Source: Gammaproteobacteria bacterium
Lineage (GTDB): Bacteria > Pseudomonadota > Gammaproteobacteria > GCA-002705445 > GCA-002716945
Reading direction: 5' to 3'
NCBI GenBank assembly: GCA_030835925.1
Contig: JAURQW010000012.1
Location: 3,500 to 67,499, forward strand
Length of the DNA: 64,000 bases
Part shown: in pieces, positions 14,443 through 47,932 of the stretch
Layout of the letters: every line of letters begins with the position of its first letter
Numbering within the stretch: the first letter of the stretch is position 1
Notes under the pieces: model-generated
What the model saw: only the letters and a program-made list of their open reading frames with translations
Told to the model about the DNA's origin: nothing
Databases searched by the model: none
Program-made: the position numbers and the translations under genes

Positions 14443-14445
14443 AAG

Positions 14446-32098: not shown

Positions 32099-33115
32099 AT
32101 GAACAATGAGCTAAAAAAATCTAATGTTGTAATAACGGGTGCTGATGGCTTTATTGGTTCACATTTAACTGAATCGTTGGTTAAACTTGGATGTAATGTT
32201 ACTGCTTTTACAATGTATAACTCACTTAATAGTTGGGGTTGGCTTGATACCATAGATAAGAAAATCATTGATAACACAAAAGTTATTTCTGGTGATATAC
32301 GTGATCAACGGTCTGTAAATAATTTATGTCATAAAGCTGACTATATTTTTCATTTAGCATCATTAATAGCTATACCATATTCTTATGAATCTCCTTATTC
32401 TTATCTTCAAACTAATGCATTAGGGACCTTGAATGTTCTGGAGTACTGCCGTGAAAAAGGCATCAAACAATTGATTCATACATCAACCAGTGAAGTTTAT
32501 GGTGACTTTACTAAAATACCCATAGACGAAAATACTCCTGTAATAGCTAAGTCTCCGTATTCAGCTACAAAAATAGCTGCAGATCAGCTAGCTTATGCTT
32601 ACTATAGTAGTTACGATATTCCCATAAGCATAATAAGACCATTTAACACATTTGGACCAAGACAGTCCAATAGAGCTATTATCCCAACAATTATCACACA
32701 ACTCTTAAACAATAAGAAAGATGTAAAACTTGGTTCGCTTTATCCTACTCGAGATTTCACATATGTAAGAGACACAGTTAAAGGATTCATTGCTATGATA
32801 AATAAGAAGAAAAGCCTTGGTCAGGTCATAAATATTGGTTCGGGCTATGAGATATCAATAGGTGATTTATTTTCATTAATTAACTCTATAATTAATACTG
32901 ATATAAAAATTAAAAAAGATAGATCGCGAATTAGACCAAAAAAAGGAGAAGTCAATAGATTGAAAGCTAATAATAAAAAAGCTAAGGATCTAATAGGGTG
33001 GACACCGGAGTATCATGGAAAGCAAGGATTAAAAAAAGCTATGATGGAAACTATAGATTGGTTTAAAGATCCAAATAATATTAAACTATATAAATCAGGC
33101 TTGTATAATATATAA
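32099..33115 (+). CDS. NAD-dependent NDP-sugar dehydratase/epimerase (extended SDR; LegB-type 4,6-dehydratase candidate)
   Basis: VVITGADGFIGSHL, STSEVYG and YSATKIAAD. Confidence 0.7.
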   Translation: MNNELKKSNVVITGADGFIGSHLTESLVKLGCNVTAFTMYNSLNSWGWLDTIDKKIIDNTKVISGDIRDQRSVNNLCHKADYIFHLASLIAIPYSYESPYSYLQTNALGTLNVLEYCREKGIKQLIHTSTSEVYGDFTKIPIDENTPVIAKSPYSATKIAADQLAYAYYSSYDIPISIIRPFNTFGPRQSNRAIIPTIITQLLNNKKDVKLGSLYPTRDFTYVRDTVKGFIAMINKKKSLGQVINIGSGYEISIGDLFSLINSIINTDIKIKKDRSRIRPKKGEVNRLKANNKKAKDLIGWTPEYHGKQGLKKAMMETIDWFKDPNNIKLYKSGLYNI

Positions 33116-33215
33116 TCTTGGTATTTTTATTAATAAGAATATAACAATTCAACCAACCATAAAGTTTGAAGATCTATTTCAAAGTAACAAGGGTGGAATA
33201 ACAACATCAAGTTAT

Positions 33216-34142
33216 TTGACTAAATCAGGTCGTTATTCTCTCTATAAAATCATATCTATTATTAAAAAAAATAATAACAATATAAATAACATATATTTAC
33301 CAAGCTTTATATGCAAAGAAGTAATTTCGTCATTAATATCATTTAATCTCGACATTTCATTTTATAAGCTAAACAATGATCTCTCTCCAGATATAAATTT
33401 TTTGAAAAAGAATCTCAAAAGAAATTCAATTTTATTCATAGTGAACTATTTTGGTGTATTGGCGGATTGGAGTTCTATTAATGATATTAAAAATGAATAT
33501 GAATTAATAACGATTGAAGATAACTGCCATTCATTAAATGAAAAAAATGGAATAGGTTCATATGGAGATTATTCATTTAATAGTTTACGAAAAATTATAC
33601 CATTATTGAGTGGCTCGGAACTTAATATTAACATAGCCAGTATTATACCTGAAACAAATAATCTTAAATTAAGGATTCCAGATATTGATGAAATTAAATA
33701 TCTCTTAAGATTTTATAGGAATAAAAAAAGCACAAAAATATCTATAAATGGCTCTGAAAATAATGAGATAGTCTCTAGTGAGAAAGGTATAGATTATATT
33801 TCAAAAAGGATATTAGATAATCATGAGTTTGATATAGATCATATATGCCTGACTAGACGCCATAACTTTATTTCATGGAATAGATTCTTGCCTAGTAGTG
33901 AATTACGTTCTTTTCATATCGATATCAATAAGGTCTATTGTCCATATGTGTATCCTTGTATTGCTGAATCAGATGAAATAAAGAAAAAGTGGATAGAATG
34001 GGGAATGAAAAATAATATTAGGATCATTAATTGGCCTAAAATACCATTTAAATCACATGATCATTTTGAAAATTCTCATTTGAATATGGTTTTATTATTT
34101 CCTATAAACCATCAGTTTAATCTACCCATTAGGTTGAATTAA
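33216..34142 (+). CDS. DegT-like PLP aminotransferase-fold protein (short; start uncertain)
   Basis: TKSGRYSLY (cf. SGTSAL), IEDNCHSL and SFNSLRKIIP (SF..K Lys region). The annotated start is TTG. The frame is open upstream to 33057 with no ATG/GTG/TTG. Confidence 0.5.
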   Translation: MTKSGRYSLYKIISIIKKNNNNINNIYLPSFICKEVISSLISFNLDISFYKLNNDLSPDINFLKKNLKRNSILFIVNYFGVLADWSSINDIKNEYELITIEDNCHSLNEKNGIGSYGDYSFNSLRKIIPLLSGSELNINIASIIPETNNLKLRIPDIDEIKYLLRFYRNKKSTKISINGSENNEIVSSEKGIDYISKRILDNHEFDIDHICLTRRHNFISWNRFLPSSELRSFHIDINKVYCPYVYPCIAESDEIKKKWIEWGMKNNIRIINWPKIPFKSHDHFENSHLNMVLLFPINHQFNLPIRLN

Positions 34143-34180
34143 TAGTATATTTAACAGGTAACATTATTAAAGAGAATGAT

Positions 34181-36115
34181 TTGAAAGACTATTTACTTAA
34201 TTTGCCAAGATTTACAAAAAGATTGTTAATGGTAACAACTGATTTTGTATCTCTCGCTTTAATGGCATGGGTCGCTCTTGTTTTAAGAGGCGATGGTTTT
34301 TTTAATATAAATGATGGATATAAATTATCCGGTGCCTCACCTCAGGAGCTTTATCAGTTTATTATAGTAGCTCCTATTATTACTATAGCGGTTCTTTTAA
34401 AAATGCGTTTATATCGGTCAATAATTCGATATATTAACGTTGATACATATGTGAAAATCTCAAAGGCATGTCTAATATCAGTTGGTCTATTAGCGATAGG
34501 TATGATTTCATTTGAAATGCCAATACCAAGGTTCACATATCCAATTTATTTTATACTGGCAACTACATCTGTGATCTATATAAGATATACAGCAAGTAGT
34601 TATCTAGCATTCAAAAATATAATGAAAAAGCGAAACGTCTTAATGGTTGGCACACATGAAGAATCCATTCAAATAGCAGAATTTTTAAAGAATAACGATC
34701 AATTGCAACCTATAGGCTTCATAGTTTCAGCTGTCAATTACGAAAAATCTAGTATTGCTGAACTACCTGTATATAACGTTTCACAAACAAATAATATAAT
34801 TATCAAAAGAGATATTGAAGAGATTTTAATAATTGAAAATAAGATAACTAAAAAAGAGACTTTGGAAATTATCAAACAGCTTTCTCCTCATCAAAAATTA
34901 ATTAGAAAAGTTCCTGATATATCTGATTATGCTTCTGGAAAAATTCAGGTCTCAGACTTTAAAAGAATTGATATTGAGGATTTATTAGGAAGAGTAGCAA
35001 TTAAGACAGATCCATTCTTATTGAAGTCATGTATTGAAAATAAAACAGTTATGGTTACAGGCGCAGGTGGCTCAATTGGGTCTGAGCTAGCAAGACAAAT
35101 AATACAGCATAACCCAAAGAAGATTATACTTCTTGAGCAATCTGAATATTTTTTATATAAAATTGATAATGAAGTCTCTAATATTGATAAAATAAAAAAC
35201 AAAAGTATTCAATTAAAATCTTTTCTTGGTTCAGTAACGGATGATGACTTTGTATCTAACATTTTTAAATCAGAAATGATTGATACAGTTTATCATGCAG
35301 CTGCTAATAAGCATGTTCCTCTAGTTGAAGATAACCCTATATCAGCAATCAAGACAAATATATTTGGAACCAAAGTTGTGGCTGAAAATGCATTGATAAA
35401 TAATATTGAAAACTTTGTCCTCATATCAAGTGATAAAGCTGTTAGACCAACAAATATTATGGGTGCAACAAAAAGGTTCGCAGAGTTAATCCTTCAATCT
35501 ATGCAAGATAAAGTTGACAAGATGCCATCAAACCAATGTAAAACTAAATTCTGTATGGTCAGATTTGGCAATGTTCTGGATACATCCGGTTCAGTAGTGC
35601 CATTATTTAGAAATCAAATAAAAGAGGGTGGCCCAGTAACGGTTACAGATACTAGAGTAATAAGATATTTTATGACAATCAGTGAAGCTACAGAGCTTGT
35701 TATACAGGCAGGTTCGTTAAGCAAAGGTGGTGAAGTATTTCTATTAGATATGGGAGAGCCTATGAGTATACTTAGCCTGGCAAAAGAAATGATTAGGCTC
35801 AGCGGGAAAGAAATTAAAGATGAAGCAAACCCTGATGGTGATATAGAAATTGTAATAACAGGATTAAGACCAGGTGAAAAACTTTATGAAGAATTACTTA
35901 TTGGCGATAATGTAAGCAAGACAGCACATGACCATATTATGTATGCAAATGAAGGGAAGCTTTCTGTAGAGGAGATTAATCGTTTCATTCAAGACCTTAC
36001 TAATTTGAAATCTAAATCAAGTATTAACGAAGTACAAAAGATTCTATACCAGTCTGTTGAAGGTTATAGTCCTAATAAAACAGAAAATATTATTGATTTT
36101 AAAGCTAACTCTTAG
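34181..36115 (+). CDS. Membrane-anchored UDP-HexNAc 4,6-dehydratase (WbpM/PglF/CapD family)
   Basis: N-terminal TM helices followed by VMVTGAGGSIGSEL and SSDKAVRPTNIMGATKR. 644 aa with a TTG start. Confidence 0.85.
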   Translation: MKDYLLNLPRFTKRLLMVTTDFVSLALMAWVALVLRGDGFFNINDGYKLSGASPQELYQFIIVAPIITIAVLLKMRLYRSIIRYINVDTYVKISKACLISVGLLAIGMISFEMPIPRFTYPIYFILATTSVIYIRYTASSYLAFKNIMKKRNVLMVGTHEESIQIAEFLKNNDQLQPIGFIVSAVNYEKSSIAELPVYNVSQTNNIIIKRDIEEILIIENKITKKETLEIIKQLSPHQKLIRKVPDISDYASGKIQVSDFKRIDIEDLLGRVAIKTDPFLLKSCIENKTVMVTGAGGSIGSELARQIIQHNPKKIILLEQSEYFLYKIDNEVSNIDKIKNKSIQLKSFLGSVTDDDFVSNIFKSEMIDTVYHAAANKHVPLVEDNPISAIKTNIFGTKVVAENALINNIENFVLISSDKAVRPTNIMGATKRFAELILQSMQDKVDKMPSNQCKTKFCMVRFGNVLDTSGSVVPLFRNQIKEGGPVTVTDTRVIRYFMTISEATELVIQAGSLSKGGEVFLLDMGEPMSILSLAKEMIRLSGKEIKDEANPDGDIEIVITGLRPGEKLYEELLIGDNVSKTAHDHIMYANEGKLSVEEINRFIQDLTNLKSKSSINEVQKILYQSVEGYSPNKTENIIDFKANS

Positions 36116-36139
36116 CCAATCTACTAGTCATTATATTAT

Positions 36140-36823
36140 ATGAAAATTGATAAGTATCTGATAAATAAAAATGAGACAATTAAGTCTGCTTTAAAAAAAA
36201 TAGACGGGAATCACTTAGGTATAATATTTATAGAGGATGATAATATAGTTGTTGGGGTTGCAACAGACGGTGATATACGAAGATTCATGTTAAAAGAAAA
36301 TAGCTTAGATTCTATTATACATAAATGTATGAATAAAGATTTCTTCTATCTTATTGATTCTGATGTAACTAATAATTTAATACTAGAATCATTAAATGAC
36401 AGAATTAAAGTAATCCCAGTATTGAATGCAAAGAGAAATTTGGTTTCTGTTGTTTCTGATAAAGTAACATCTTGGGAGACTACTGTTCATAAACCCTGGG
36501 GATACTATAATACTTTAATCAATAATAAAGAGTTTTTGGTTAAAAAGATTGTAATATTTTCCAAACAAAGTATCTCATTACAAATTCATAATTTTAGATC
36601 AGAGCACTGGATTGTTTTAGAAGGCACTGCAACTATCTTAATAAATAAAAATGAGATCACTTTAAAAAAATCTGAATCTACATATGTTCCTCGGAAAACT
36701 GAACATAAAGTTACTAATAATACAGATGAACCACTAATTATTTTAGAAACTCAACTTGGAACAAAGTTATCGGAAAACGATATTATTAGAATTGAAGATC
36801 AGTATAACAGGAACTCAAAATAA
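36140..36823 (+). CDS. CBS-pair + cupin (type-II phosphomannose-isomerase-like) protein
   Basis: CBS region (GVATDGDIRRFM) followed by cupin KPWGYY...ISLQIHNFRSEHWIVLEGTA...VPRKTEHKVTN. Confidence 0.65.
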   Translation: MKIDKYLINKNETIKSALKKIDGNHLGIIFIEDDNIVVGVATDGDIRRFMLKENSLDSIIHKCMNKDFFYLIDSDVTNNLILESLNDRIKVIPVLNAKRNLVSVVSDKVTSWETTVHKPWGYYNTLINNKEFLVKKIVIFSKQSISLQIHNFRSEHWIVLEGTATILINKNEITLKKSESTYVPRKTEHKVTNNTDEPLIILETQLGTKLSENDIIRIEDQYNRNSK

Positions 36824-36900
36824 AATTATACTTAGCTATTATCATGTTAGGCTTGATGCTATATTAATTAGCTAGTATTGCAATTTTTCTGGAGACAATA

Positions 36901-37719
36901 ATGGGTGTAAAAATAATTGCCGAAGGTGGCATTAATCATAATGGCGATATCACTATGGCAGAAAAACTAATTGATGTAGCCGTTGATTCTGGTTGTGATT
37001 ATATTAAATTTCAAAAAAGGAATCCAGATATCTGTGTACCAGAAAAACAAAAGAATGTTCCTAAGTCTACTCCTTGGGGTGATATGACATACCTAGAGTA
37101 TAAAAAGAAAACTGAATTTGATAAAAAAGAATATGACCATATTGACAAATATTGTAAGAAACAGAAGATTAAGTGGTTTTGCAGTGTTTGGGATCTAGAT
37201 TCTGTAGATTTTATGAAACAGTATTGTTCTATAACAAAAATACCCTCAGCTTTGATTGTTGATGAAAAGTTATGTAAAAAAGCAAGACAAGAAAATACTG
37301 AGCTAATTATATCAACAGGTATGAGTACAGAAAAAGAGATTGAGCAAGCTATTTCTTGGTGTGATCCTGATATAATTATGCACACAAATTCCACTTATCC
37401 CTCTCCTTTAAATCAAATAAATATTAGATATATCAGTTGGTTACAGTCTAAATATAAAAATAAAATCATTGGTTATAGTGGACATGAGTTAGGACTTATG
37501 CCTACAATTCATGCTGTTGCAATTGGAGCAAAATATGTAGAAAGACATATAACTCTTGATAAAGAATTATGGGGCTCTGATCATAAGGCCTCACTTGAGC
37601 CTAAAGAACTGAATGAATTAGTTGCATTTATAAGAGAAATCGAAGCTAGCGCTGGTGACGGTGGTCCTAGGTCGCTACTCCAAGGCGAGAAAGACAAACT
37701 CAAGAGTCTGCGTGGTTGA
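36901..37719 (+). CDS. NeuB-family PEP-condensing (ulosonic/nonulosonic acid) synthase lacking the SAF domain
   Basis: IIAEGGINHNGDITMAEKLIDVA..CDYIKFQKR; SGHELG; ERHITLD. At 272 aa it ends before any SAF/antifreeze-like domain. Confidence 0.7.
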   Translation: MGVKIIAEGGINHNGDITMAEKLIDVAVDSGCDYIKFQKRNPDICVPEKQKNVPKSTPWGDMTYLEYKKKTEFDKKEYDHIDKYCKKQKIKWFCSVWDLDSVDFMKQYCSITKIPSALIVDEKLCKKARQENTELIISTGMSTEKEIEQAISWCDPDIIMHTNSTYPSPLNQINIRYISWLQSKYKNKIIGYSGHELGLMPTIHAVAIGAKYVERHITLDKELWGSDHKASLEPKELNELVAFIREIEASAGDGGPRSLLQGEKDKLKSLRG

Positions 37720-37725
37720 GTTTAA

Positions 37726-38799
37726 ATGAACTTTGTCAGTCATTTCAAAAATAAAACAGTCCTTGTTACAGGTAACACGGGCTTTAAGGGTTCATGGTTA
37801 TCACTATGGCTTAATCTCATGGGCGCAAAGGTAATTGGAGTCTCTAAAGATATACCAACAATCCCATCTCATTATAAGCTTAATAATAAGTTTTATCTCA
37901 AAAATGAAAAATTTGATTTATCAAATAAAAAATTAATTACGAAAATTATTAAAAATTCTAAGCCAGATTATATATTTCATTTAGGAGCTCAAGCTATAGT
38001 ATTAGAATCATATAACGATCCATATGCAACCTATCTATCAAATACAGTTGGTACGCTGAATATATTAGAGTCATTAAAGGAAAGTAATCATAAATGTACT
38101 GCAATTTTAATTACTAGTGATAAATGTTATGAGAATATTGACAAAAAAGTTAATTATAAGGAAAAGGATAGACTCGGTGGACTTGACCCCTATAGCTCAT
38201 CAAAAGCATCAGCTGAACTTATAATACGAAGTTATTATGAATCATATTTTAAAACTAAATCTTCCAATGTCAGAATCTGTTCTGCTAGAGCAGGCAATGT
38301 AATGGGCGGAGGTGATTGGGCAAAACATAGGATAGTCCCAGATTGCATGAAATCATGGTCTGAAGGAAAAAAAGTAATTATAAGAAATGCTAAATCAACA
38401 AGACCATGGCAACATGTTCTTGAGCCATTAAGCGGATACCTGACACTTGCAAAATCATTATCCAAAGATCAAAATCTAAACGGCGAAGCTTTTAATTTTG
38501 GTCCTAATTCAAGTTCCTCTCATACTGTTAAAGAATTAGTTGATAATCTATCTTTATATTATCCGGGGTCAGAGTCTAAAGTAATCCTAGATAAAAATAA
38601 ACGATATGAAGCCAATCTCCTTAGTTTGAATTGTTTAAAAGCAAAAAAATTACTTAATTGGTCATCTAAGATTAATTTTAAGAATACTGCCAAGATGACA
38701 AGTCAATGGTATGAGACATATTATAATTCAAGTCCGAATAATGCCTATAAGTTATCATTAGAGCAGATTGAGAGATATATAGCGTTATTAGATAGATGA
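37726..38799 (+). CDS. rfbG: CDP-glucose 4,6-dehydratase
   Basis: FKNKTVLVTGNTGFKGSWLSLWL (RfbG-type N-terminus), YSSSKASAE and RPWQHVLEPLSGYL. Confidence 0.8.
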   Translation: MNFVSHFKNKTVLVTGNTGFKGSWLSLWLNLMGAKVIGVSKDIPTIPSHYKLNNKFYLKNEKFDLSNKKLITKIIKNSKPDYIFHLGAQAIVLESYNDPYATYLSNTVGTLNILESLKESNHKCTAILITSDKCYENIDKKVNYKEKDRLGGLDPYSSSKASAELIIRSYYESYFKTKSSNVRICSARAGNVMGGGDWAKHRIVPDCMKSWSEGKKVIIRNAKSTRPWQHVLEPLSGYLTLAKSLSKDQNLNGEAFNFGPNSSSSHTVKELVDNLSLYYPGSESKVILDKNKRYEANLLSLNCLKAKKLLNWSSKINFKNTAKMTSQWYETYYNSSPNNAYKLSLEQIERYIALLDR

Positions 38800-39218
38800 T
38801 AGAAGAAATAATTATCACCCATTTAAAAAGGATACACGTATCTAACGGAGATGTTCTTCATGGGATGAAAAAGACAGATGATGGATACACTGATTTTGGA
38901 GAGATTTATTTTTCAAATATTTTAAAAGATAAAATAAAAGCTTGGAAAATCCATAAAAAAATGACATTAAATCTAATAGTACCATCTGGCTCAGTGCGTT
39001 TTAATTTTATTCAAGTTAGCTCAGAGGGATTGATAGATAATCGCATGGAGATCACAGTCTCTAGTGACAACTATTGCAGGATCACAGTACCGCCAAATAT
39101 AATTTTTGGATTTAAGGGAATAGGAAAGGATGCAAACATTATTGCAAATATTGCAGATATTACTCATAGTGACGATGAAGTGAAAAAAATTGATATTAAT
39201 AAATTTGAGTTCAAATAA
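38796..39218 (+). CDS. Small RmlC-like cupin (NDP-sugar epimerase / keto-isomerase candidate)
   Basis: 140 aa with a cupin-like FGEIYFSNILKDKIKAWKIHKKMTLNLIVPSGSVRF, located between rfbG and rfbF. Confidence 0.5.
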   Translation: MIEEIIITHLKRIHVSNGDVLHGMKKTDDGYTDFGEIYFSNILKDKIKAWKIHKKMTLNLIVPSGSVRFNFIQVSSEGLIDNRMEITVSSDNYCRITVPPNIIFGFKGIGKDANIIANIADITHSDDEVKKIDINKFEFK

Positions 39219-39219
39219 A

Positions 39220-39921
39220 ATGAGAGTAATAATATTGGCGGGTGGATTCGGAACAAGACTTGGGGAGGTCACAGATCTTATCCCAAAACCTATGGTATCA
39301 GTAGGGGGAAAGCCTATAATTATTCACCTCATGGAACATTTTGCTTCATATGGGCATACTCAGTTTCATATAGCACTAGGATATAAAGCTAATGTAATTG
39401 AAAAATATTTTAATGAACATTCTTTTGAATGGAGCATTAATCTTCATGATACAGGACTCCATACTGCGACTGGTGGGAGGGCTAAACAAATTAGCTCGTC
39501 ATTAAATGGCGAAAAATGTTTTCTTACATATGGAGATGGGTTATCTAATGTAGATTTATCTCAACTAGAAATATTTCATAATAACCATGGTGGGTTAGCT
39601 ACAGTAACAGCAGTTCATCCAGCGGCTAGATTTGGAGAATTAGATTTAGATGGTGATAGGGTGTTGTCCTTTGAGGAAAAACCACAGCTTCAGACCGGGT
39701 GGATAAATGGCGGATTTTTTCTTTTAGAAAATGATTTTTTTAAATATATTAGCTCTGATTCAATCATGCTTGAAAGAGAGCCGTTAGAATCAGCGACAAA
39801 AGATAAAAATTTATTTGCGTTTAAGCACGATGGTTTCTGGCAATGCATGGACACAAGGAGAGATCATAGTTTATTAGAAGAACTATACAAGCAGGGCAAT
39901 CCTCCATGGCAAAAAAAATAA
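39220..39921 (+). CDS. rfbF: Glucose-1-phosphate cytidylyltransferase
   Basis: MRVIILAGGFGTRLGEVTDLIPKPMV, WINGGFF and GFWQCMDTRRD motifs. ATG 39220 lies 1 nt after the upstream stop. Confidence 0.8.
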   Translation: MRVIILAGGFGTRLGEVTDLIPKPMVSVGGKPIIIHLMEHFASYGHTQFHIALGYKANVIEKYFNEHSFEWSINLHDTGLHTATGGRAKQISSSLNGEKCFLTYGDGLSNVDLSQLEIFHNNHGGLATVTAVHPAARFGELDLDGDRVLSFEEKPQLQTGWINGGFFLLENDFFKYISSDSIMLEREPLESATKDKNLFAFKHDGFWQCMDTRRDHSLLEELYKQGNPPWQKK

Positions 39922-39983
39922 GTATCTTAGGTATTACATTAAATCAATTGGCAGAGTTTAAAAGCTCTGAAAGGTAAAATATA

Positions 39984-40673
39984 ATGAATGTTATCGCAAT
40001 AATACCCGCAAGAGGAAATAGTAAAGGAATAAAAAATAAAAATATTATTAATTTTTGTAATAAACCATTAATATATTGGACTATAGAACAATCACTAAAA
40101 AGTAAGCATATAAGCCAGAATGTTTATGTTACTTCTGATAATAAAGATATCTTGGATTTATCAGCAAGCTATGGCGCGATACCAATATTAAGGCCAGATG
40201 AGTTGTCAACAGATACATCTTCAAGCGAAGATGCACTATTACATGCAATAGAGAAAATCGAGAAGACTACCAGTATTGATTTAGTTGTCTTTTTGCAATG
40301 CACATCACCATTAAGAGAGACTGACGATATCGATAATGCCATTGATAGTTTTATAAAAAATGATTATGATTCACTTTTTTCAGCTACAGATATGAAAGAT
40401 TTATGTTTATGGAGATCTATAGATGATAATTTCTGTAGTATAAATTTTAATTATAAGGCGAGACAAATGAGACAAAATATAACGCCTCAATATTCTGAAA
40501 ATGGATCATTTTATATAGTTAAACCAGATATCTTAAAAAAGAATAAAAATAGATTTGGTGGAAAAATTGGAATATATGAAATGGATGCATGGAAGGTATA
40601 TGAAATAGATGAAGAGGATGATATTGAGATTTGTAATTATTTCATGACAACAAAAATCTTAAAAAATAATTAA
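39984..40673 (+). CDS. Second acylneuraminate-type cytidylyltransferase (CMP-ulosonate synthetase)
   Basis: IAIIPARGNSKGIKNKNI and LQCTSPLR motifs; 229 aa. Confidence 0.8.
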   Translation: MNVIAIIPARGNSKGIKNKNIINFCNKPLIYWTIEQSLKSKHISQNVYVTSDNKDILDLSASYGAIPILRPDELSTDTSSSEDALLHAIEKIEKTTSIDLVVFLQCTSPLRETDDIDNAIDSFIKNDYDSLFSATDMKDLCLWRSIDDNFCSINFNYKARQMRQNITPQYSENGSFYIVKPDILKKNKNRFGGKIGIYEMDAWKVYEIDEEDDIEICNYFMTTKILKNN

Positions 40674-40691
40674 AAAATGGTACGATAAGCA

Positions 40692-41663
40692 ATGGCAAAT
40701 AGAAAAGTATATATGAATGGAAAATTTGTTGATGAATGTGAAGCAAAGGTATCAATCTTTGACTCATCTTTAATGTTTGGTGACATGGTATTTGAAATGA
40801 CTAGGTCATTCAATGGCGAACATTTTAAACTCAAAGAACATATCGATAGATTATTTATGGGGTTAAAAATTCTTCGTATAGAATTACCAGAGAGTAAAGA
40901 AGATGTATATAATTTATGCATAAAAACCGCCCAAATGAATCAAGATGCATTTGATGAAGACGATGAACATAGGTTACTAATAGACGTATCAAGGGGTGTT
41001 TTGGGAATTTATGAGGGGATCAATGGTATCCATCGTGGATACAATTTAATTATTGCAGACTTCCCGTTAAAATGGACAGTTCAAGGTATGGGAAAGTTAT
41101 TCTCAACGGGAATAAACAATGTAATTACTAATCAGAAAGTTATTCCCGCACACTTAATGGATCCAAAAATTAAAAATAGAAGTCGTCTCTTTTATTTAAT
41201 GGCAAACATAGAAGCATCATTATTTAAAGGTGAAAATAATTGGCCTTTAATGCTTGATACTGATGGATATATTACGGAGGGGAGTGGAGATAATTTTTTT
41301 ATTGTTAAGAATAATACTGTAATCTCGCCAGAAGGTAGAAATATGCTTAGAGGAATTAGTAGAGATTATATTATGAAAGACTTATGTAAAACTTTAGATA
41401 TAAATGTTATTGAGAAAAATATCGAACCTTATGATGTGTATGAAGCTGATGAAGCATTCATTTCTGCTACGCCATTTTGTATGTTACCTGTTACATCTCT
41501 AAATTCTCTCAAAATAGGTGATGGAAAACCTGGTAAAGTATTCAATAAATTAATACGTTTATGGTCAAAGAATACAGGTGTAGATATTATCAAACAAATA
41601 GAATCATGGAATAAAGGAATAGAAAATTCAAAAAATAAAGTAACACCATACAAATTTAAATGA
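40692..41663 (+). CDS. Class-IV (BCAT / D-amino-acid) PLP aminotransferase
   Basis: VSIFDSSLMFGDMVFEMTR..HIDRL; EGSGDNFFIV; RGISR. Confidence 0.7.
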   Translation: MANRKVYMNGKFVDECEAKVSIFDSSLMFGDMVFEMTRSFNGEHFKLKEHIDRLFMGLKILRIELPESKEDVYNLCIKTAQMNQDAFDEDDEHRLLIDVSRGVLGIYEGINGIHRGYNLIIADFPLKWTVQGMGKLFSTGINNVITNQKVIPAHLMDPKIKNRSRLFYLMANIEASLFKGENNWPLMLDTDGYITEGSGDNFFIVKNNTVISPEGRNMLRGISRDYIMKDLCKTLDINVIEKNIEPYDVYEADEAFISATPFCMLPVTSLNSLKIGDGKPGKVFNKLIRLWSKNTGVDIIKQIESWNKGIENSKNKVTPYKFK

Positions 41664-42409
41664 CAGATATACGTAAAGTTGTTGATAAGCTGAAAAATGA
41701 TAATTTTGTTATTATCAAAAATTTCTTTGATAAAAAAGTTTTATCTGAGATTAAAGTAGAAATAAAAATTCTTAAAGAAGCGGAAATGAATAGAAGAGAC
41801 AAGCATTTTATTAAAGTTAATGACAAATTAATACTTAGTAGCATGCATAATATTCATCTATATTCTACTTATTATAAAAATTTAATATTAGATAGCAAAT
41901 TGAGAGATATTGTCAAACTAAGGTATGGTTCAACAAGCAAGAGAATATTCAATTCTTCGCTTTTTGCTAAACCTAAAAATGTTGGGCTTTCTACGAAAAT
42001 ACATCAAGATAATGCATTTTTTAATTTAAATAATGCTGAAGCTCTGACATGTTGGGTTGCAATTGATAAATCAGACAAAGATAATGGAGGATTATTTTAT
42101 TATAAAGGATCTTCTAAATTAGGTCTTGTTAATCATATTCCTGAAGGCAATCTAGGGGCATCTATGACTATAGAGAAAACAGAAGAATTCAAAAGACTAA
42201 TTAAAAAATTCAAGAAAGTTTTTATTGATGTTTCTCCAGGAGATTGTGTTATACATGATGCACTAGTTGTTCATGGAAGTAAGTCCAATATTTCAAATAA
42301 AAATCGTAGAGCATTTAATTTTTCTATAGCTAGTAGAGATAGTATTAATAAGAAAAAACTTAATCTTTATAAAAATAAATTAAAAAAGTTCTTAGATGAT
42401 AATAAATAG
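41660..42409 (+). CDS. PhyH-family Fe(II)/2-oxoglutarate dioxygenase
   Basis: An HQD facial-triad start (KIHQDNAFF) and a distal His (ALVVHGSKSN); 249 aa. Confidence 0.65.
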   Translation: MTDIRKVVDKLKNDNFVIIKNFFDKKVLSEIKVEIKILKEAEMNRRDKHFIKVNDKLILSSMHNIHLYSTYYKNLILDSKLRDIVKLRYGSTSKRIFNSSLFAKPKNVGLSTKIHQDNAFFNLNNAEALTCWVAIDKSDKDNGGLFYYKGSSKLGLVNHIPEGNLGASMTIEKTEEFKRLIKKFKKVFIDVSPGDCVIHDALVVHGSKSNISNKNRRAFNFSIASRDSINKKKLNLYKNKLKKFLDDNK

Positions 42410-42606
42410 TGGATTACTCATCATATTTTATTAATCATATATCTAGCGAAGAAGTAACGCTAGAACGACAGCCTCTAGTAAATGTCACATATAATCAAGA
42501 ACTATACATATATAAAAATGGTGGTCATAGGCATCGTATGGGTACCCGAATAAACCATAAATTACCAGAAGACTTCTATCAACAAGGCAAGCTTCAATGG
42601 CAGTGA
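42409..42606 (+). pseudogene. Remnant of a glucose-1-phosphate cytidylyltransferase (rfbF) 3' end
   Basis: The last 58 aa align without gaps to the C-terminus of the 39220-39921 product, with 23/58 identical by hand count (LER.PL, ..K..G, M.TR..H.L.E..Y.QG...WQ). The GFWQCMDT motif has degraded to GHRHRMGT, and the roughly 200 N-terminal residues are absent. Confidence 0.65.
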
Positions 42607-42616
42607 AAATAAGTCA

Positions 42617-43549
42617 ATGAGAATACTTATAACAGGCGCATCTGGATTACTAGGTGGAAGACTGGCTAATCATCTTCATCAAAAAAAGAAATATATACTA
42701 ACAATGTTATCTAGAAGAGCAGAAGAACATGATTATTTAAAAAATTTTGGTTCTGTAATCAATATTGATTGGGACGATCAGAATCAATTAAATAAAATAC
42801 TAAAGAATATAGATATTGTAGTGCATGCTTTTGGACCAACAGCTCAACAGTGTTCAAACGATCCAGTTAATCAAATATCTTTATATAAGAAATATACACA
42901 AAATCTTTTAAAAGCTATAAAGTCGAATACGATATCTAAAGTTATATTATTATCGTCAATACATGTTTATTCTGAGAACCCAGAAGGAGATGTTGATGAA
43001 GAAAGCGCTACACTAAATAATCACCCTTATGCTTTAAGTAAAATTGCAGTGGAGGATATAATCAAAAAATCTACTATGTTAAATCCCAAGTTCTATACGT
43101 TGAGACTATCTAACTGTTATGGCTATCCGATAACCAGGACAAAAGACTGCTGGAATTTATTTGTTAATGATATTTGCAAAGGGTCAGTAACTAATAAATC
43201 ATTAATTATTAAGAACAATCCATACAACAGAAGAGATTTCCTACCAGTCACATACTTTTGCGATGTTGTCGAGCATATTATAAGCAATAACAATATAAAA
43301 GAAGGTTTATATAATTTAACATCAGGTGAAACAAGAGAATTGATTGAGTTTAGTAAATATATTAAAAATATTCTTAGAAAGACTTTAGGTGTATCTTTAC
43401 AAATTGAATATAATAAGCATAATAAAAAAACCAAAAATTTTGCACTATTAAATAATAAAATTTCTTCAAAGATACCAGATATATTGGTTAATCATGAAGA
43501 TGAGATTCAAAAATTATACATATATTGTAAAGATAATTTTACAAAATGA
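42617..43549 (+). CDS. NAD-dependent epimerase/reductase (extended SDR)
   Basis: ILITGASGLLGGRL and YALSKIAVE. Confidence 0.65.
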   Translation: MRILITGASGLLGGRLANHLHQKKKYILTMLSRRAEEHDYLKNFGSVINIDWDDQNQLNKILKNIDIVVHAFGPTAQQCSNDPVNQISLYKKYTQNLLKAIKSNTISKVILLSSIHVYSENPEGDVDEESATLNNHPYALSKIAVEDIIKKSTMLNPKFYTLRLSNCYGYPITRTKDCWNLFVNDICKGSVTNKSLIIKNNPYNRRDFLPVTYFCDVVEHIISNNNIKEGLYNLTSGETRELIEFSKYIKNILRKTLGVSLQIEYNKHNKKTKNFALLNNKISSKIPDILVNHEDEIQKLYIYCKDNFTK

Positions 43550-44448
43550 AATTTTCAATTATTTTGCCAACTTATAATAGAGCAGAATTGTTCCTCAAAA
43601 GAGCAATTGATTCAGTGGTTAGGCAGTCGTATAAAGATTGGGAGCTAATAATAGTTGATAACAATTCCACAGATAGTACAAAAGACTTGGTTGGCTCTTA
43701 TTCAGGTAATAATATTCGTTTATATAGTATCCAAAACGAAGGAAATATTGCAAAATCGCGCAATTTAGGTATATCAAAAGCGAAAGGTGAATTTATTGCA
43801 TTTTTAGATTCTGATGACTATTGGAGAGCAGATAAACTTGAGAAATGCATAAGTATTTTAAAAAATAATCCAGGCTATGACGGTGTTTGTCATGCTGAAT
43901 ACTGGATAGATGCTACAAGGTGTCAACAAATTAGAAAATATGGACCTGAAAGATATTTTAATTATAAACAACTACTTGTTAGAGGGAATTCAGTATCATT
44001 ATCTGCGATGATTGTTAATAGAGATAATATAATTACTGTAAAGAGTTTTTCAGAGAACAGAGAAATGATAACAGCTGAAGATTATGATTTATGGATAAAA
44101 TTAGCAAAGAATAACACAGAGATTTTTTTTACTAATGAGCCTTTAGGGTATTACCAGATACATGAGGATTCAGAGAGTTCGAATATATCAAGAAATACAA
44201 AAGCTATTATTTATGTTATAGAAAGCCACTTGAAAGATCAAAAAAAGATATTAAACAAAGCTCTTGCAAACTGCTGGAAAAATACTGGTAAACAATTTTA
44301 CTTAAATTGTTTAAATTATGAATCATATAGGTCATATCTAAAATCATTAAAATATAATTGCATGAATATAAAGATATATTTATTAATTTTAACCACTCTT
44401 GTGCCAGCCAAGTTTTATAAATATATAGTGAATAAGAAAAATGACTAA
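43546..44448 (+). CDS. Family-2 glycosyltransferase
   Basis: FSIILPTYNRAELFLKRAIDSV..QSYKDWELIIVDNNSTDST and FLDSDD. Confidence 0.8.
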   Translation: MKFSIILPTYNRAELFLKRAIDSVVRQSYKDWELIIVDNNSTDSTKDLVGSYSGNNIRLYSIQNEGNIAKSRNLGISKAKGEFIAFLDSDDYWRADKLEKCISILKNNPGYDGVCHAEYWIDATRCQQIRKYGPERYFNYKQLLVRGNSVSLSAMIVNRDNIITVKSFSENREMITAEDYDLWIKLAKNNTEIFFTNEPLGYYQIHEDSESSNISRNTKAIIYVIESHLKDQKKILNKALANCWKNTGKQFYLNCLNYESYRSYLKSLKYNCMNIKIYLLILTTLVPAKFYKYIVNKKND

Positions 44449-47266
44449 ACTAAAAATATCATATTCATATTTAATTGGTGATCTTTTGCATTATGGACAT
44501 CTTGAATTACTTAAAAAAGCAAAAGCAAAATGCGACTTACATATATGTGGAATAATATCTGATAAAGCTGCTAATGAATGGCAGTCACCTTTAATATGTA
44601 ATTATATAGAGCGAAGTAGCGTTATACAGCAAATAAGATATGTTGACAAGATTATGCAACAAGATTCCTTAGATCCATCTAGTAATCTTAAAAAAATAAT
44701 AAAAAAATATCCTCAGGCTACAATTTATTTTTTTCCGATGTATCAAAAATGGAATTTTCTACCTGGAACTAAAATAGTTAATGAGATTGGAGGAAAAATT
44801 ATTAAACCAGGTTTTTATAATAAACTTTCTCGTAGTAACATCAGAAGAGCCTTCAAAGAATCACCGAAAGTTAGCAAGATTACACATTCATTAAATAATC
44901 AAGTAAATTATAACCATGCATTTGATATAAATACGACTAAAGCTGAAACATTAAAAAATCTATCTAATCAATTAAAGAAATCATACATAGAAAAACTATT
45001 CACATTTAATATAAAAGAGTGGAGAGGTTCATCTGATAAAATCATTAAAAAATCACAGGAAATATTTGGTACAAAGAAAGTAGTGGTTAGGAGCTCATCA
45101 TTGTCTGAGGATATGATGAGTACTTCTGGTGCTGGGTTATATCATTCAGAACTTAATGTAGATAACTCTGATAGAAAGCAGTTAAAGCATTCAATAAACA
45201 AAGTGAAGCAGAGTTACAATAAAGGCAAAAAGGATCAATTTGATCAGATTATTATACAAGAACAATCTAATGATGTGATTATTAGCGGTGTATGTCTGAC
45301 ACGTAATCTTAAGAATAACTCTCCGTACTACATTATTAATTTTGATGATAAATCTATGCAAACAGATACTGTAACTGGTGGTCTAGTTGGTGATAAGGTA
45401 GAAATAATAAGAAATATTGAGATTAAAAGTATTCCATCTAAATGGAAAAACTTGATTATTTCTATAAGAGAAATAGAAGATCTTCTCCCCAATCTAGCTC
45501 TAGATATAGAGTTTGCGATCAACAAGAAAAAACAAATAATTATTTTTCAGGTAAGACCATTAGCCGCTAACTCAAAATACCCTGAGCATAATGATTTAAA
45601 AATATTTGATAACCATAAAAAAATCAAAAATATATATAAAAAGGAAATAAATCACCTCGGTGATGGTGAAGTCATATTGAGTGATATGGGTTTCTGGAAC
45701 CCTGCAGAGCTTATCGGAGATAGGCCTTTACCGTTAGGTGAATCATTGTTTAACAAGATTCTGATGGATGATGTATGGAATTCATCACTACTATCTCTTG
45801 GGTATAGTAAATCTGAAGGCTCTCTTAGTACAAAGATAGGAAATAAGCCTTATATTAATTTAAAAAAGTCTTTTGAAACATTAACCCCAAAAGATATTCC
45901 TAATTCTCTAAAAGATAAGCTAATCAAGTATTATAATAAAAAACTTAAGAGTTATCCTCAATATCATGATAAGTTAGAATTTGAGGTTGTGCTAAGTTCT
46001 TTCAATATGAATACTGATAACTCAATGGATGAGTTATTACAAAATAATTTTAATATTGATGAAATTACTCAAATCCGCAATTCTTTATATAAACTGACCA
46101 AGAATATTTTCAAAGATTATAAAGATATTTTTTCTAATGATACAACTTCAATAAAAAAGCTTGTTAAGAATTTTAAATATATCCCAACAACTAAAGCTAA
46201 TTGGAAGAGAAATCTTTTAACGCTAGTAACATATATAGATCAAATTCGAAAGAATGGTACGCCACAATTCTGTAGAGCAGCAAGATTAACATTTATTGCC
46301 AAAGATTTTATAAAAAGTTTTATTGATCATAATCCTAAATATAAAGAAGACTGTGAATTACTGTTATCAAAAATAAAAACTGTATCGTCTACTATGCAGG
46401 ATGACTTGGCTATGGCAAGTGACACTAAGAAGAAAGCAAGATTCTTTAAAAAGTATGGTCATCTAAGACCTGATACATATAACATTAATAATAAAAGATA
46501 TGATCAGATGAAAAACTTATTATCAAAAAACATAAGGAAAAATATAAAGGATAATAGAAAATCTGTTAATCCTGAATTAGTAAAAGATATTAATATATCT
46601 CTAAAAGAATTAAAACTTAATATCGATTATAAAGGGTTTATAAACTTTCTTGAATCATCTATAAAAAATCGAGAAAAATATAAATTTGAATATAGCAAGG
46701 TTATAAGCGGAATTATAGAAATGATTGCTGATATTGGTAATGTAATCAATATCAACAGACAAGATTTTTCCTACATAGATTATCAGACTCTTAAAATAAT
46801 TTTGAATTCAGATATGGATGTTAGTTCAGCGCATGAATTATGCACATCATTGATAATTTCTAGACGTAATAATCATGAAGTCTTAAATCATATCTCGTTA
46901 CCGTCATTGCTATTTAATCTTCAGGGTCTTACTGTCATAGCTAATCATACAACAGTGCCAAATTTCATTACTGACGAAATAGTTGAATCAAAAGTTATTA
47001 ATATAAAGATGCAAGAAACAACAAACATCACTAATAAAATAGTTGTAATAGATAATGCTGATCCTGGTTATGATTGGATATTCTCATATAAGATAAAAGG
47101 CTTGATAACTTTATATGGTGGGTTAGCGTCGCATATGGCAATTAGGTGTGCTGAATTTAATATACCTGCTGCGATTGGTTGTGGTTCATTAGTTTATGAA
47201 ACAGTAAACACTTCTGAAAAAATATTGCTTGATTGTAAAAATAAAAAAATCAAGAAGATAATATGA
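44441..47266 (+). CDS. Fusion protein: TagD-like cytidylyltransferase domain + PPDK/PEP-synthase-type ATP-grasp + phosphohistidine swivel domain (Cj1418 glutamine-kinase-like)
   Basis: aa 1-~135 carry GDLLHYGHLELLKKAK (HxGH). aa ~165-235 carry TKAETLKNL...VVVRSSSLSEDMMSTSGAGLY (PPDK_N signature). The C-terminus carries DNADPGYDW...LYGGLASHMAIRCAEFNIPAAIGCG (mobile His domain; His codon at 47132-47134). Confidence 0.7.
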   Translation: MTKLKISYSYLIGDLLHYGHLELLKKAKAKCDLHICGIISDKAANEWQSPLICNYIERSSVIQQIRYVDKIMQQDSLDPSSNLKKIIKKYPQATIYFFPMYQKWNFLPGTKIVNEIGGKIIKPGFYNKLSRSNIRRAFKESPKVSKITHSLNNQVNYNHAFDINTTKAETLKNLSNQLKKSYIEKLFTFNIKEWRGSSDKIIKKSQEIFGTKKVVVRSSSLSEDMMSTSGAGLYHSELNVDNSDRKQLKHSINKVKQSYNKGKKDQFDQIIIQEQSNDVIISGVCLTRNLKNNSPYYIINFDDKSMQTDTVTGGLVGDKVEIIRNIEIKSIPSKWKNLIISIREIEDLLPNLALDIEFAINKKKQIIIFQVRPLAANSKYPEHNDLKIFDNHKKIKNIYKKEINHLGDGEVILSDMGFWNPAELIGDRPLPLGESLFNKILMDDVWNSSLLSLGYSKSEGSLSTKIGNKPYINLKKSFETLTPKDIPNSLKDKLIKYYNKKLKSYPQYHDKLEFEVVLSSFNMNTDNSMDELLQNNFNIDEITQIRNSLYKLTKNIFKDYKDIFSNDTTSIKKLVKNFKYIPTTKANWKRNLLTLVTYIDQIRKNGTPQFCRAARLTFIAKDFIKSFIDHNPKYKEDCELLLSKIKTVSSTMQDDLAMASDTKKKARFFKKYGHLRPDTYNINNKRYDQMKNLLSKNIRKNIKDNRKSVNPELVKDINISLKELKLNIDYKGFINFLESSIKNREKYKFEYSKVISGIIEMIADIGNVININRQDFSYIDYQTLKIILNSDMDVSSAHELCTSLIISRRNNHEVLNHISLPSLLFNLQGLTVIANHTTVPNFITDEIVESKVINIKMQETTNITNKIVVIDNADPGYDWIFSYKIKGLITLYGGLASHMAIRCAEFNIPAAIGCGSLVYETVNTSEKILLDCKNKKIKKII

Positions 47267-47931
47267 AAAATATTTTAATAACACAAAGAATTGGCAAAAA
47301 TAAATATGGTGAGTACTACGATTATCTTGAATCTTCATACATAAAGTATCTAAACCAATATGAGATTAATCCAATTATACTTCCTAATAATACAAAAGAT
47401 ATCATTGGTTTTTATAAAAAAAATAGATGTAGTCATATCATATTGACAGGTGGAGATGATATATGTCCATCCCTATATAACAAGAAAGCTGCAAAACTAA
47501 ATAATAATCTTTATCAAAGAGACTTAAATGAGCAAATACTTGTAAAATATTCTGTAGAGAAAAAGATTCCAGTTCTTGGTATTTGCAGAGGCTTCCAAAT
47601 TATAAACGTCTGTTTAGGTGGTAAACTTACAAAAGATATTTGTGAGATTACTAATTCTATTAATAAAAAGAAGCATAAAGTAAATTTTACTAAAGACTTT
47701 GCAAAAAAGATGAAGAGGGAGTCAATTATAGTAAACTCATATCATAACCAAGGCATCACAAAACCGCAACTTGCTACTAATTTAGTACCAGTAGGTTTTT
47801 CAGATGATGGTGAACTAGTAGAAATTTATAATCATGTTAAATTACCAATCATAGGTATTCAATGGCATCCCGAAAGAAAAAACTTCTGTAAAGATTTTGA
47901 TGAGTATATATTTAAATTATTTTTGAAATAA
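47263..47931 (+). CDS. Class-I glutamine-amidotransferase-like gamma-glutamyl hydrolase (peptidase C26; Cj1417-like)
   Basis: Nucleophile elbow PVLGICRGFQIIN and His region GIQWHPE; 222 aa. Confidence 0.75.
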   Translation: MKNILITQRIGKNKYGEYYDYLESSYIKYLNQYEINPIILPNNTKDIIGFYKKNRCSHIILTGGDDICPSLYNKKAAKLNNNLYQRDLNEQILVKYSVEKKIPVLGICRGFQIINVCLGGKLTKDICEITNSINKKKHKVNFTKDFAKKMKRESIIVNSYHNQGITKPQLATNLVPVGFSDDGELVEIYNHVKLPIIGIQWHPERKNFCKDFDEYIFKLFLK

Positions 47932-47932
47932 G

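Follow-up and report, generated by a model that had tools for sequence, protein, structure and literature searches.

Among the nonulosonic acid synthases in UniProt, 30% lack a SAF domain, and these proteins form whole branches, including Streptomyces (PMC8208679). When seven sugars were tested with the Kdn-9-phosphate (Kdn-9-P) synthetase of Prymnesium parvum, mannose-6-phosphate (Man-6-P) alone was converted, with no conversion of mannose (Man), N-acetylmannosamine (ManNAc), mannosamine (ManN), arabinose (Ara), ManNAc-6-P or Ara-5-P (PMC6200933). In Streptomyces coelicolor, a NeuE/NeuA/NeuB-like operon (SCO4879-SCO4881) is part of the cluster SCO4873-4882, which is implicated in the formation of a teichulosonic acid wall polymer (PMC3479208, PMC13011467). 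Here we analyze a SAF-less NeuB-family synthase of 272 amino acids (aa) and its neighboring genes in a 64,000-nucleotide stretch of a marine gammaproteobacterial genome (assembly GCA_030835925.1, contig JAURQW010000012.1, positions 3,500 to 67,499; hereafter the window, with the genome denoted G000). An earlier note, made from the sequence alone, had described the seven genes at 36901-42409 as a second ulosonic acid module distinct from the logic of the neuraminic (Neu), legionaminic (Leg) and pseudaminic (Pse) acid pathways. All seven genes were found intact on the plus strand by open reading frame (ORF) calls, Pfam and NCBIfam, and the 77-bp spacer that the note reported between the preceding CBS-cupin gene and the synthase gene is present at 36824-36900. 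We propose, with a rough probability of 0.55, that the locus encodes a Kdn-type ulosonic acid pathway of the phosphate route and a separate cytidine diphosphate (CDP)-6-deoxyhexose pathway, which are interleaved, plus a tailoring cassette that was added later.

In the proposed scheme, the CBS-cupin protein, a predicted phosphomannose isomerase (PMI; hereafter CBS-PMI), would convert fructose-6-phosphate (Fru-6-P) to Man-6-P, which the SAF-less synthase would condense with phosphoenolpyruvate (PEP) into Kdn-9-P or a closely related compound. The phosphate would then be removed by a phosphatase encoded outside the window, for which the single KdsC of the genome is the candidate, and the NeuA-type enzyme would form the cytidine monophosphate (CMP)-activated sugar. 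The PhyH-family dioxygenase would most likely oxidize a CH-OH group of the ulosonic acid to a ketone, which the aminotransferase would convert to an amine, yielding an amino-Kdn-type sugar with the amine at a position that the scheme leaves free. RfbF, RfbG, the RmlC-like protein and the short-chain dehydrogenase/reductase (SDR) would supply a CDP-6-deoxyhexose for the same glycan.

The synthase is a complete member of its family. Pfam detected the NeuB domain alone in this protein and no SAF domain. The protein ends in ...KSLRG, where its alignment to the SAF-bearing structure 3g8r also stops (...SLRSLR), and rfbG starts after a spacer of 6 bases. In a homolog search in which 8000 sequences were scored, the best 120 were all 270-282 aa long, shared at least 60% identity with the synthase and came mostly from marine metagenomes; hundreds of homologs have a length of 270-280 aa. 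Residues E8, K36, Q38, K113, S116, S138, N163, Y166, S193, H195, E214, H216 and D227 are conserved and align with E25, K53, Q55, K129, S132, S154, N184, Y186, S213, H215, E234, H236 and D247 of Neisseria meningitidis (Nm) NeuB. The PEP-binding, metal-binding and catalytic positions that match the Nm enzyme are invariant in an alignment of 21 homologs, with the exception of Nm E134, whose position is occupied by L118 in the synthase. The ratio of nonsynonymous to synonymous substitution rates (dN/dS) is 0.033 relative to the 96%-identical homolog in L015 (loci are numbered with L and genomes with G), and dN/dS values of 0.03-0.19 indicate purifying selection on all genes. The idea that the synthase is a SAF-bearing NeuB reduced to a truncated pseudogene was rejected, because the length is that of the homologs, the ligands are kept and dN/dS is 0.03; the degenerate synthase considered in the earlier note was thus not found.

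To compare the synthase with the P. parvum enzyme, we translated the coding sequence given in the supplement of PMC6200933, which yielded a SAF-less protein of 312 aa. The two proteins are 34% identical (E 3e-42), compared with 23% between the P. parvum enzyme and the SAF-bearing NeuB of the window, and they share the motifs KFQKRNP, SVWD, STGM, SGH and ERH..D...WG.DH.ASLEP. In a quick maximum-likelihood tree, the P. parvum enzyme joined all 46 sampled SAF-less relatives with an SH-aLRT support of 96, and a careful maximum-likelihood tree recovered the same clade with UFboot/SH-aLRT supports of 97/92. NmNeuB, PseI, SpsE, the Leptospira protein 6ncs and the LegI-like NeuB of the window fell outside this clade in both trees, in agreement with a module distinct from Neu, Leg and Pse logic. 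An unverified human NANS sequence also fell in the clade with the P. parvum enzyme; it serves as a lead only, and the conclusion stands without it. The placement with the P. parvum enzyme is good but not conclusive, and on this basis we propose that the synthase is of the Kdn-9-P type, using a sugar-6-phosphate and PEP.

The neighborhoods of the synthase relatives provide a second line of evidence. We retrieved 80 loci from genomes, 80 from metagenomes and 14 by contig look-ups; counts were made on 165 dereplicated loci. Naive ORF calling produced many spurious antisense ORFs in high-GC loci, for which only clusters verifiable by Pfam or by tblastn with known queries were used. A HAD phosphatase is encoded within 10 kb in 105 of the 129 loci from the group with less than 52% identity to the synthase, and in 16 of the 36 loci of the closer marine clade, whose contigs are shorter (tblastn counts). 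A protein of about 100 aa recurs beside the marine relatives; its DxDxT motif, matches to TIGR01689 in 11 of 12 members and a match to PDB 9iqw (E 1e-23) identify it as a minimal HAD phosphatase. Streptomyces and many other relatives carry a KdsC-like HAD protein, often fused to a NeuA-type gene directly upstream of the synthase. The presence of a dedicated phosphatase in these relatives points to a phosphorylated synthase product and therefore to a sugar 6-phosphate as the aldose substrate. A 6-deoxy aldose would not fit, because a 6-deoxy sugar cannot carry a 6-phosphate.

A candidate source of such a substrate lies immediately upstream. The CBS-cupin protein matches the C-terminal PMI part of bifunctional mannose-1-phosphate guanylyltransferase/phosphomannose isomerase (GMP/PMI) enzymes, and 268 of 401 genomes of the class have frames of ~475-500 aa, a length typical of such bifunctional enzymes, whose C-terminal part shares 40-46% identity with its cupin half. 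No other PMI-type cupin domain was found in G000. The CBS-cupin protein holds the sequences KPWGYY and SLQIHNFRSEHW, which we read as cupin/PMI-type motifs. The CBS-PMI gene is located directly upstream of the synthase gene in L015 (96% identity) and L095 (81%), heads the gene string that holds the synthase in L007 (71%), and has a dN/dS of 0.044. Placing the start of the module at the synthase, as was done previously, thus sets the boundary one gene late. In the more distant aminotransferase-linked loci, a GmhA-like SIS isomerase or a fused AP_endonuc_2 domain takes the equivalent place. A sugar or sugar-phosphate isomerase beside the synthase is therefore a recurring theme, which in this locus points to the sequence Fru-6-P to Man-6-P to Kdn-9-P, with CBS-PMI as the likely supplier of the synthase substrate. 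As a separate observation, L209 (labelled Pelagibacter) and L217, another marine contig, encode a GmhA-like SIS_2 isomerase directly upstream of the SAF-less synthase that is linked to the same aminotransferase, and a heptose-7-phosphate (ten-carbon) substrate may be used in these lineages.

The genes for CDP-hexose synthesis were best understood by comparison with L015, a locus in genome G798. The gene order in L015 is LegB, DegT-like, WbpM, CBS-PMI, NeuB, rfbG, the 140-aa cupin gene, rfbF, SDR and GT2, and the genes are 82-96% identical to those of the window, except for the DegT-like gene (75%) and GT2 (63%). No gene separates rfbF from the SDR gene in L015, and the encoded SDR is 82% identical to that of the window (dN/dS 0.19), for which no specific reductase family was matched. 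The 140-aa cupin has no Pfam match itself; a profile of five homologs matches PDB 3ejk, titled 'dTDP sugar isomerase', and a 52%-identical homolog in L207 and L215 carries PF00908. It follows a 4,6-dehydratase in all six loci where it was observed, and probably epimerizes or isomerizes the CDP-4-keto-6-deoxyhexose. For rfbF, the ORF caller chose a TTG start at 39190; the ATG at 39220 is the likelier start, giving the N-terminus MRVIILAGGFGTR, and the homologs are 233-237 aa long. RfbH/RfbI-type genes for 3-deoxygenation were not found in the CDP module, and a 6-deoxyhexose rather than a 3,6-dideoxyhexose is therefore expected. From their predicted functions, RfbF, RfbG, the RmlC-like protein and the SDR would make up a separate, self-sufficient CDP-6-deoxyhexose module. 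The rfbG/RmlC-like/rfbF trio was found in only one of the 165 loci, L015.

The three genes that follow rfbF, encoding the cytidylyltransferase, the aminotransferase and PhyH, have a different origin. The interval 39924-42517 has no counterpart in L015, and the aminotransferase was not found in G798. By blastn, positions 42518-43914 of the window correspond to positions 7332-8728 of L015, and this match overlaps the end of the L015 rfbF gene that is already matched by window positions 39001-39923. A three-way alignment resolved the overlap into a segment of ~120 bp with ~70% identity to the 3' end of the functional rfbF, joined to the start of the SDR gene as in L015. We interpret this segment as a recombination scar, a relic of the ancestral rfbF-SDR junction that marks the insertion of the cassette. 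The cytidylyltransferase, aminotransferase and PhyH are 76, 86 and 79% identical, respectively, to those of L205, compared with 40% for the NeuB domain and 51% for RfbG. Because of this relic, and because high identity to L205 in the three genes stands against low identity in the flanking ones, the cassette was imported by recombination from another type of locus. The genes of the module, previously treated as one unit, are thus composite.

A survey of 37 genomes of ~1 Mb from the same family gave a NeuB-type match in 10. The 272-aa form occurs only in G000 and G798, and the other eight genomes (G347, G796, G800, G805, G806, G809, G812 and G813) have a frame of 631-688 aa. Reading this frame in L205-L208, L215/L216 and L233-L235 showed a NeuB-(SAF)-AP_endonuc_2 fusion, with genes for a nucleotidyltransferase and a 453-aa CBS-GHMP kinase ahead of it; no description of this architecture was found. 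The aminotransferase is present in 6 of the 37 genomes, all 6 of which have a NeuB-type gene, compared with 10 of 37 overall. Only in the window does the cassette accompany a SAF-less synthase of the 'plain', HAD-linked type.

The association between the aminotransferase and NeuB-type synthases extends beyond this family. Aminotransferase homologs with 67-94% identity were found in records labelled Flavobacteriales, Gammaproteobacteria and Pelagibacter. A NeuB-type synthase is encoded no more than 3 kb upstream in all ten contexts with readable upstream DNA (the window and nine others); in the eleventh context, L219, the contig is 3.6 kb long and stops short of the upstream region. A CMP-transferase was identified beside the aminotransferase in those ten contexts, except in L218 and L220. 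The aminotransferase occurs with two sets of partners, either PhyH, whose gene always overlaps that of the aminotransferase by 4 bp (the window, L205-L208, L215/L216 and L234), or AP_endonuc_2 together with an SDR (L217-L220 and L235). Aligned to PHYHD1, the window PhyH shows the HxD...H facial triad and an Arg. The closest solved relatives of the aminotransferase are branched-chain aminotransferases (BCATs; E 1e-50), and it keeps the catalytic Lys and an Arg that aligns with the BCAT Y-I-R motif and that we take to be a carboxylate binder. The nearest structures to the cytidylyltransferase are CMP-Neu5Ac synthetases, including an entry titled PpNeuA (E 1e-27 to 1e-17).

By hydroxylating a carbinol carbon, a PhyH-type dioxygenase can produce a ketone; KanJ of the kanamycin pathway is an example. 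The repeated pattern of an oxidant and an aminotransferase beside a phosphate-route synthase suggests that amination follows condensation, and the chemistry of the cassette is probably the exchange of a hydroxyl for an amine on the ulosonic acid. Nothing relevant on a class IV aminotransferase or a PhyH protein in ulosonic acid biosynthesis was found in the searchable literature. More tentatively, and with some doubt on our part, the locus may encode an oxygen-dependent route to an amino-ulosonic acid that is free of nucleoside diphosphate (NDP)-sugars, in which Kdn would be formed via Man-6-P and Kdn-9-P, oxidized by PhyH and transaminated by the BCAT-like fold-type IV enzyme; such a route is so far undescribed. 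The earlier note had considered the product unpredictable and the pathway possibly new. The first point holds for the final product and gives way to a predicted Kdn-type backbone made by the phosphate route; the second applies to the tailoring part, for which no description was found, and does not extend to the synthase, which groups with the characterized Kdn-9-P synthetase. In L004 and L102, two phage-like loci, PhyH genes are also present near SAF-less NeuB genes; the encoded proteins have no significant similarity to the window PhyH and so lend no support to a conserved PhyH-NeuB pair.

Several observations weigh against the Kdn-type reading. The P. parvum sequence is on a long branch in the tree, and an identity of 34% to the sole verified characterized Kdn-9-P synthase leaves room for another sugar phosphate. 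No HAD phosphatase gene is present in the window, and the small HAD protein typical of the marine relatives was not found in G000, an 83%-complete assembly; its KdsC is a single copy of the housekeeping type on contig 22. The marine relatives with 55-71% identity are often located beside DegT and PseB/LegB-like genes, and in L010 also beside a NeuC-like gene. In the window itself, a WbpM-type dehydratase gene (34181-36115) and a DegT-like gene (33216-34142) lie just upstream of CBS-PMI and the synthase. With these neighbors and no phosphatase at hand, the synthase could be a second enzyme of the nucleotide route (Leg/Pse-like), acting on a 2,4-diamino-2,4,6-trideoxyhexose that either comes from WbpM and the DegT-like protein or is drawn from the legionaminic module of the window. 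We consider this unlikely, since the trees set the synthase apart from NeuB, PseI, SpsE and the LegI-like enzyme, it lacks the SAF domain together with the substrate-binding Arg that this domain provides to the active site of the partner, and it has Leu in place of Nm E134. An NDP-sugar-hydrolysing 2-epimerase or hydrolase (NeuC/LegG/PseG) was not found within 33000-44500, and the conserved neighbor of the synthase is a PMI gene. Loci with DegT also carry the small HAD protein, as in the compact phage-like operon L001 (SDR-DegT-(MptE-like+CTP_transf_3)-NeuB-HAD-SDR), which fits amination after condensation; in L007 an SDR and a DegT aminotransferase are encoded beside the CTP3 gene and the synthase. 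The statement that neither NeuC nor a DegT aminotransferase accompanies the synthase is correct inside 36901-42409, and has to be qualified for its surroundings by the divergent DegT-like gene upstream and by the NeuC of the legionaminic module.

A further point against a separate CDP pathway is that the trio adjoins the aminotransferase cassette in L205-L208, L215/L216 and L234, and thus stands beside NeuB-type genes there as well. Together with the 6-base spacer between synthase and rfbG, which are linked in the same way in L015, this would be expected if the CDP-hexose genes fed the synthase, as the earlier note had suggested, providing a 6-deoxy or otherwise unusual aldose for condensation with PEP into a new 9-deoxy ulosonic acid that is then CMP-activated. 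Homology of the L205-type loci to the window extends over the full locus and includes the WbpM, GT2, Glyphos_transf and 941-aa genes, and for this reason we read the linkage of trio and cassette as inherited locus structure rather than pathway coupling, a reading that is not proven. No NDP-sugar hydrolase or 2-epimerase that could free an aldose is encoded in the module, and the trio, present in 1 of 165 relative loci, is complete and contiguous with its SDR in L015. The synthase belongs to a sugar-6-phosphate clade with phosphatase-linked relatives, and a 6-phosphate is precisely what a 6-deoxy sugar cannot carry. A feeding role of the CDP-hexose genes is therefore very improbable, and a Kdn-type pathway interleaved with a self-sufficient CDP module remains our preferred reading.

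The tailoring step is affected by the AP_endonuc_2 domain (PF01261), a xylose-isomerase-like TIM barrel that was not found in G000 in a search for which control genomes were positive, and that is present, free or fused to the synthase, in every other aminotransferase genome examined (L205-L208, L215-L220, L234 and L235). The tailoring branch may thus be incomplete or altered in G000. A BCAT-like enzyme could also act on the C2 keto-acid function instead of a ketone elsewhere on the sugar. The aminotransferase and PhyH might spare the sugar backbone altogether, by making a hydroxylated or D-amino-acid substituent, by aminating the C2 keto acid of the open-chain product, or as a non-functional passenger cassette; true branched-chain aminotransferases as the closest solved structures, the retained BCAT-motif Arg, the missing AP_endonuc_2 partner and the secondary acquisition of the cassette would all be compatible with this. 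We regard it as improbable nonetheless. The aminotransferase is found beside a NeuB-type synthase wherever the upstream region is readable, and beside a CMP-transferase too except in L218 and L220, while no ligase or acyltransferase travels with it. Amination at C2 would remove the anomeric hydroxyl required for CMP activation, and the three cassette ORFs are intact with dN/dS values of 0.04-0.08 relative to L205, measured across lineages. A hydroxyl-to-amine exchange on the Kdn-type backbone is the reading that we carry forward.

If this reading is correct, amination at C5 would mean that a sialic acid of the neuraminic type is made without ManNAc, and amination elsewhere would give a new positional isomer; in either case, post-condensation amination of Kdn would be a new logic for amino-sialic-type sugars, apart from those of Neu, Leg and Pse. 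The PhyH/aminotransferase pair would correspond, as an aerobic version, to the SDR/AP_endonuc_2 sets found elsewhere with the same aminotransferase, and the three-gene cassette could land beside different synthases and so diversify marine surface glycans. SAF-less NeuB homologs are usually annotated as 'N-acetylneuraminate synthase'. Their phosphate-route placement and phosphatase linkage give a testable substrate prediction that would apply to a large number of misannotated genes, both in marine bacteria and on phage-like contigs. The locus also illustrates cassette swapping, with a scar, in a hypervariable glycan island, and such islands probably shape phage susceptibility. The features of the locus are listed in Table 1.

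Table 1. Features of the proposed ulosonic acid and CDP-6-deoxyhexose locus, in window coordinates
Feature	Length (aa)	Position	Strand	Evidence and remarks
CBS pair + type II phosphomannose isomerase cupin (CBS-PMI)	227	36140..36823	+	PF01050, E 2.4e-33; TIGR01479 (GMP_PMI) positions 352-467
SAF-less NeuB-family synthase	272	36901..37719	+	PF03102 as sole domain, E 5.7e-69
CDP-glucose 4,6-dehydratase (RfbG)		37726..38799	+	TIGR02622, 428.9 bits, above cut-off of 278.45
RmlC-like small cupin	140	38796..39218	+	Profile against PDB 3ejk, E 3.7e-23
Glucose-1-phosphate cytidylyltransferase-like protein (RfbF)		39220..39921	+	TIGR02623 best match, 254 bits, below cut-off of 300
NeuA-type CMP-ulosonate synthetase (CTP_transf_3)	229	39984..40673	+	PF02348, E 1.5e-25
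Fold-type IV (BCAT-like) aminotransferase	323	40692..41663	+	PF01063, E 7e-39; below every NCBIfam cut-off
PhyH-family Fe(II)/2-oxoglutarate dioxygenase	249	41660..42409	+	PF05721, E 2e-23; 4-bp overlap with aminotransferase gene
Decayed duplicate of rfbF 3' end		42495..42616	+	blastn and three-way alignment
SDR, probable 4-ketoreductase (predicted function)	310	42617..43549	+	PF01370, E 1e-28

The window has a GC content of ~30%, and its first ~56 kb consist almost wholly of plus-strand surface-glycan genes. G000 comprises ~0.92 Mb in 27 contigs, compared with ~1.0-1.2 Mb in genomes of the same genus, so that this glycan island represents about 5% of a streamlined marine gammaproteobacterial genome. 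Scans for promoters and terminators gave no more matches than shuffled sequence; they carry no information on operon boundaries and give no support to the 77-bp spacer as a module boundary. The legionaminic-type module upstream includes a PtmA-like SDR, a first CTP_transf_3 gene, two WbuX genes with HisH/HisF, a PglD-like acetyltransferase, a CBS-nucleotidyltransferase, and LegC, NeuC and a 368-aa SAF-bearing NeuB (18577-22066), with LegB at 32099. The NeuC gene (19812-20963), located beside the SAF-bearing NeuB, is the only one in the window, and the 368-aa protein and the 272-aa synthase are the only two NeuB-family genes in the G000 assembly. The DegT-like gene before WbpM encodes 308 aa with no more than a weak DegT match in Pfam (E 1e-4). 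In L207 and L215, WbpM is likewise preceded by a DegT-annotated gene, of 341 aa, to which the window protein has 39% identity; the latter is a sugar aminotransferase, short and divergent, that forms a pair with the WbpM-type dehydratase.

Additional gene sets were observed in the island. A 941-aa protein encoded within 44441-48694 combines a TagD-like cytidylyltransferase domain with PPDK_N and a PEP-utilizer mobile domain. Its gene recurs after GT2 in L215. In the window, genes for a Peptidase_C26 glutamine amidotransferase and an NTP_transf_3 protein come after it, with an APS-kinase-like gene upstream at 15406-15951; to us, this set resembles the Campylobacter jejuni O-methyl-phosphoramidate genes Cj1415-Cj1418. 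Beside the APS-kinase-like gene, the region 12386-15405 encodes a CDP-alcohol phosphatidyltransferase-like protein, a 430-aa protein of unknown family and a 319-aa protein with a pyruvate kinase barrel only, a combination that is unusual for a glycan locus. A UDP-sulfoquinovose-synthase-like SDR gene at 27068-28213 (NF041015, 411 bits; cut-off 575) hints at a sulfonated sugar. Among the synthase relatives, L001-L006 (metagenome contigs of 17-259 kb) have SAF-less NeuB operons in phage-like contexts (PhoH, ClpP, HSP20, a sigma factor and many small ORFs), including one string in which a pyruvyltransferase, methyltransferases, CTP_transf_3 and PhyH accompany NeuB.

The locus combines features of several known systems. 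With the CDP-6-deoxyhexose pathways of O-antigens (RfbF/RfbG plus an epimerase and a reductase) it shares an RfbG of equivalog score and, contiguous in L015, the RfbF-like, RmlC-like and SDR genes; it differs in lacking RfbH/RfbI-type genes and in its unusually short probable epimerase of 140 aa. Like the canonical NeuB, LegI and PseI enzymes (N. meningitidis NeuB, PDB 1xuu/2wqp), the synthase has the PF03102 TIM barrel and the same PEP and metal ligands. Unlike them, it has no SAF domain, carries Leu at the Nm E134 position and has the clade-specific KFQKRNP motif with a different following loop; it belongs to a separate clade, and its module has no NeuC or PseG partner.

The uncharacterized cassette of L217, found in part in L218-L220, consists of a SAF-less NeuB, NeuA, a HAD protein, the fold-type IV aminotransferase, AP_endonuc_2 and SDRs. 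It resembles the window in having a 58-68% identical aminotransferase directly downstream of a NeuB-type synthase, and in L217 also a CMP-transferase. In the window, however, the oxidant is PhyH rather than SDRs, the isomerase is a PMI cupin rather than a GmhA-like SIS protein, AP_endonuc_2 is absent from G000, and the synthase belongs to the 'plain' HAD-linked subclade instead of the aminotransferase-linked one.

The Streptomyces loci, which are inferred to be orthologous to SCO4881, encode SAF-less homologs of the same clade with 47-49% identity to the synthase and a NeuA-HAD fusion directly upstream. They are linked to a Gram-positive wall polymer, which in S. coelicolor we take to contain Kdn, in contrast to a Gram-negative surface glycan, and they have neither the aminotransferase nor PhyH. 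The Kdn pathway of P. parvum likewise relies on a SAF-less NeuB-type synthase of the same clade and a NeuA-type CMP synthetase, and the PpNeuA entry is among the nearest structures to the window enzyme. The window differs from it in the 34%-identical synthase, the absence of a phosphatase from the locus and the dedicated CBS-PMI gene, and its added aminotransferase and dioxygenase would imply that the end product is not plain Kdn.

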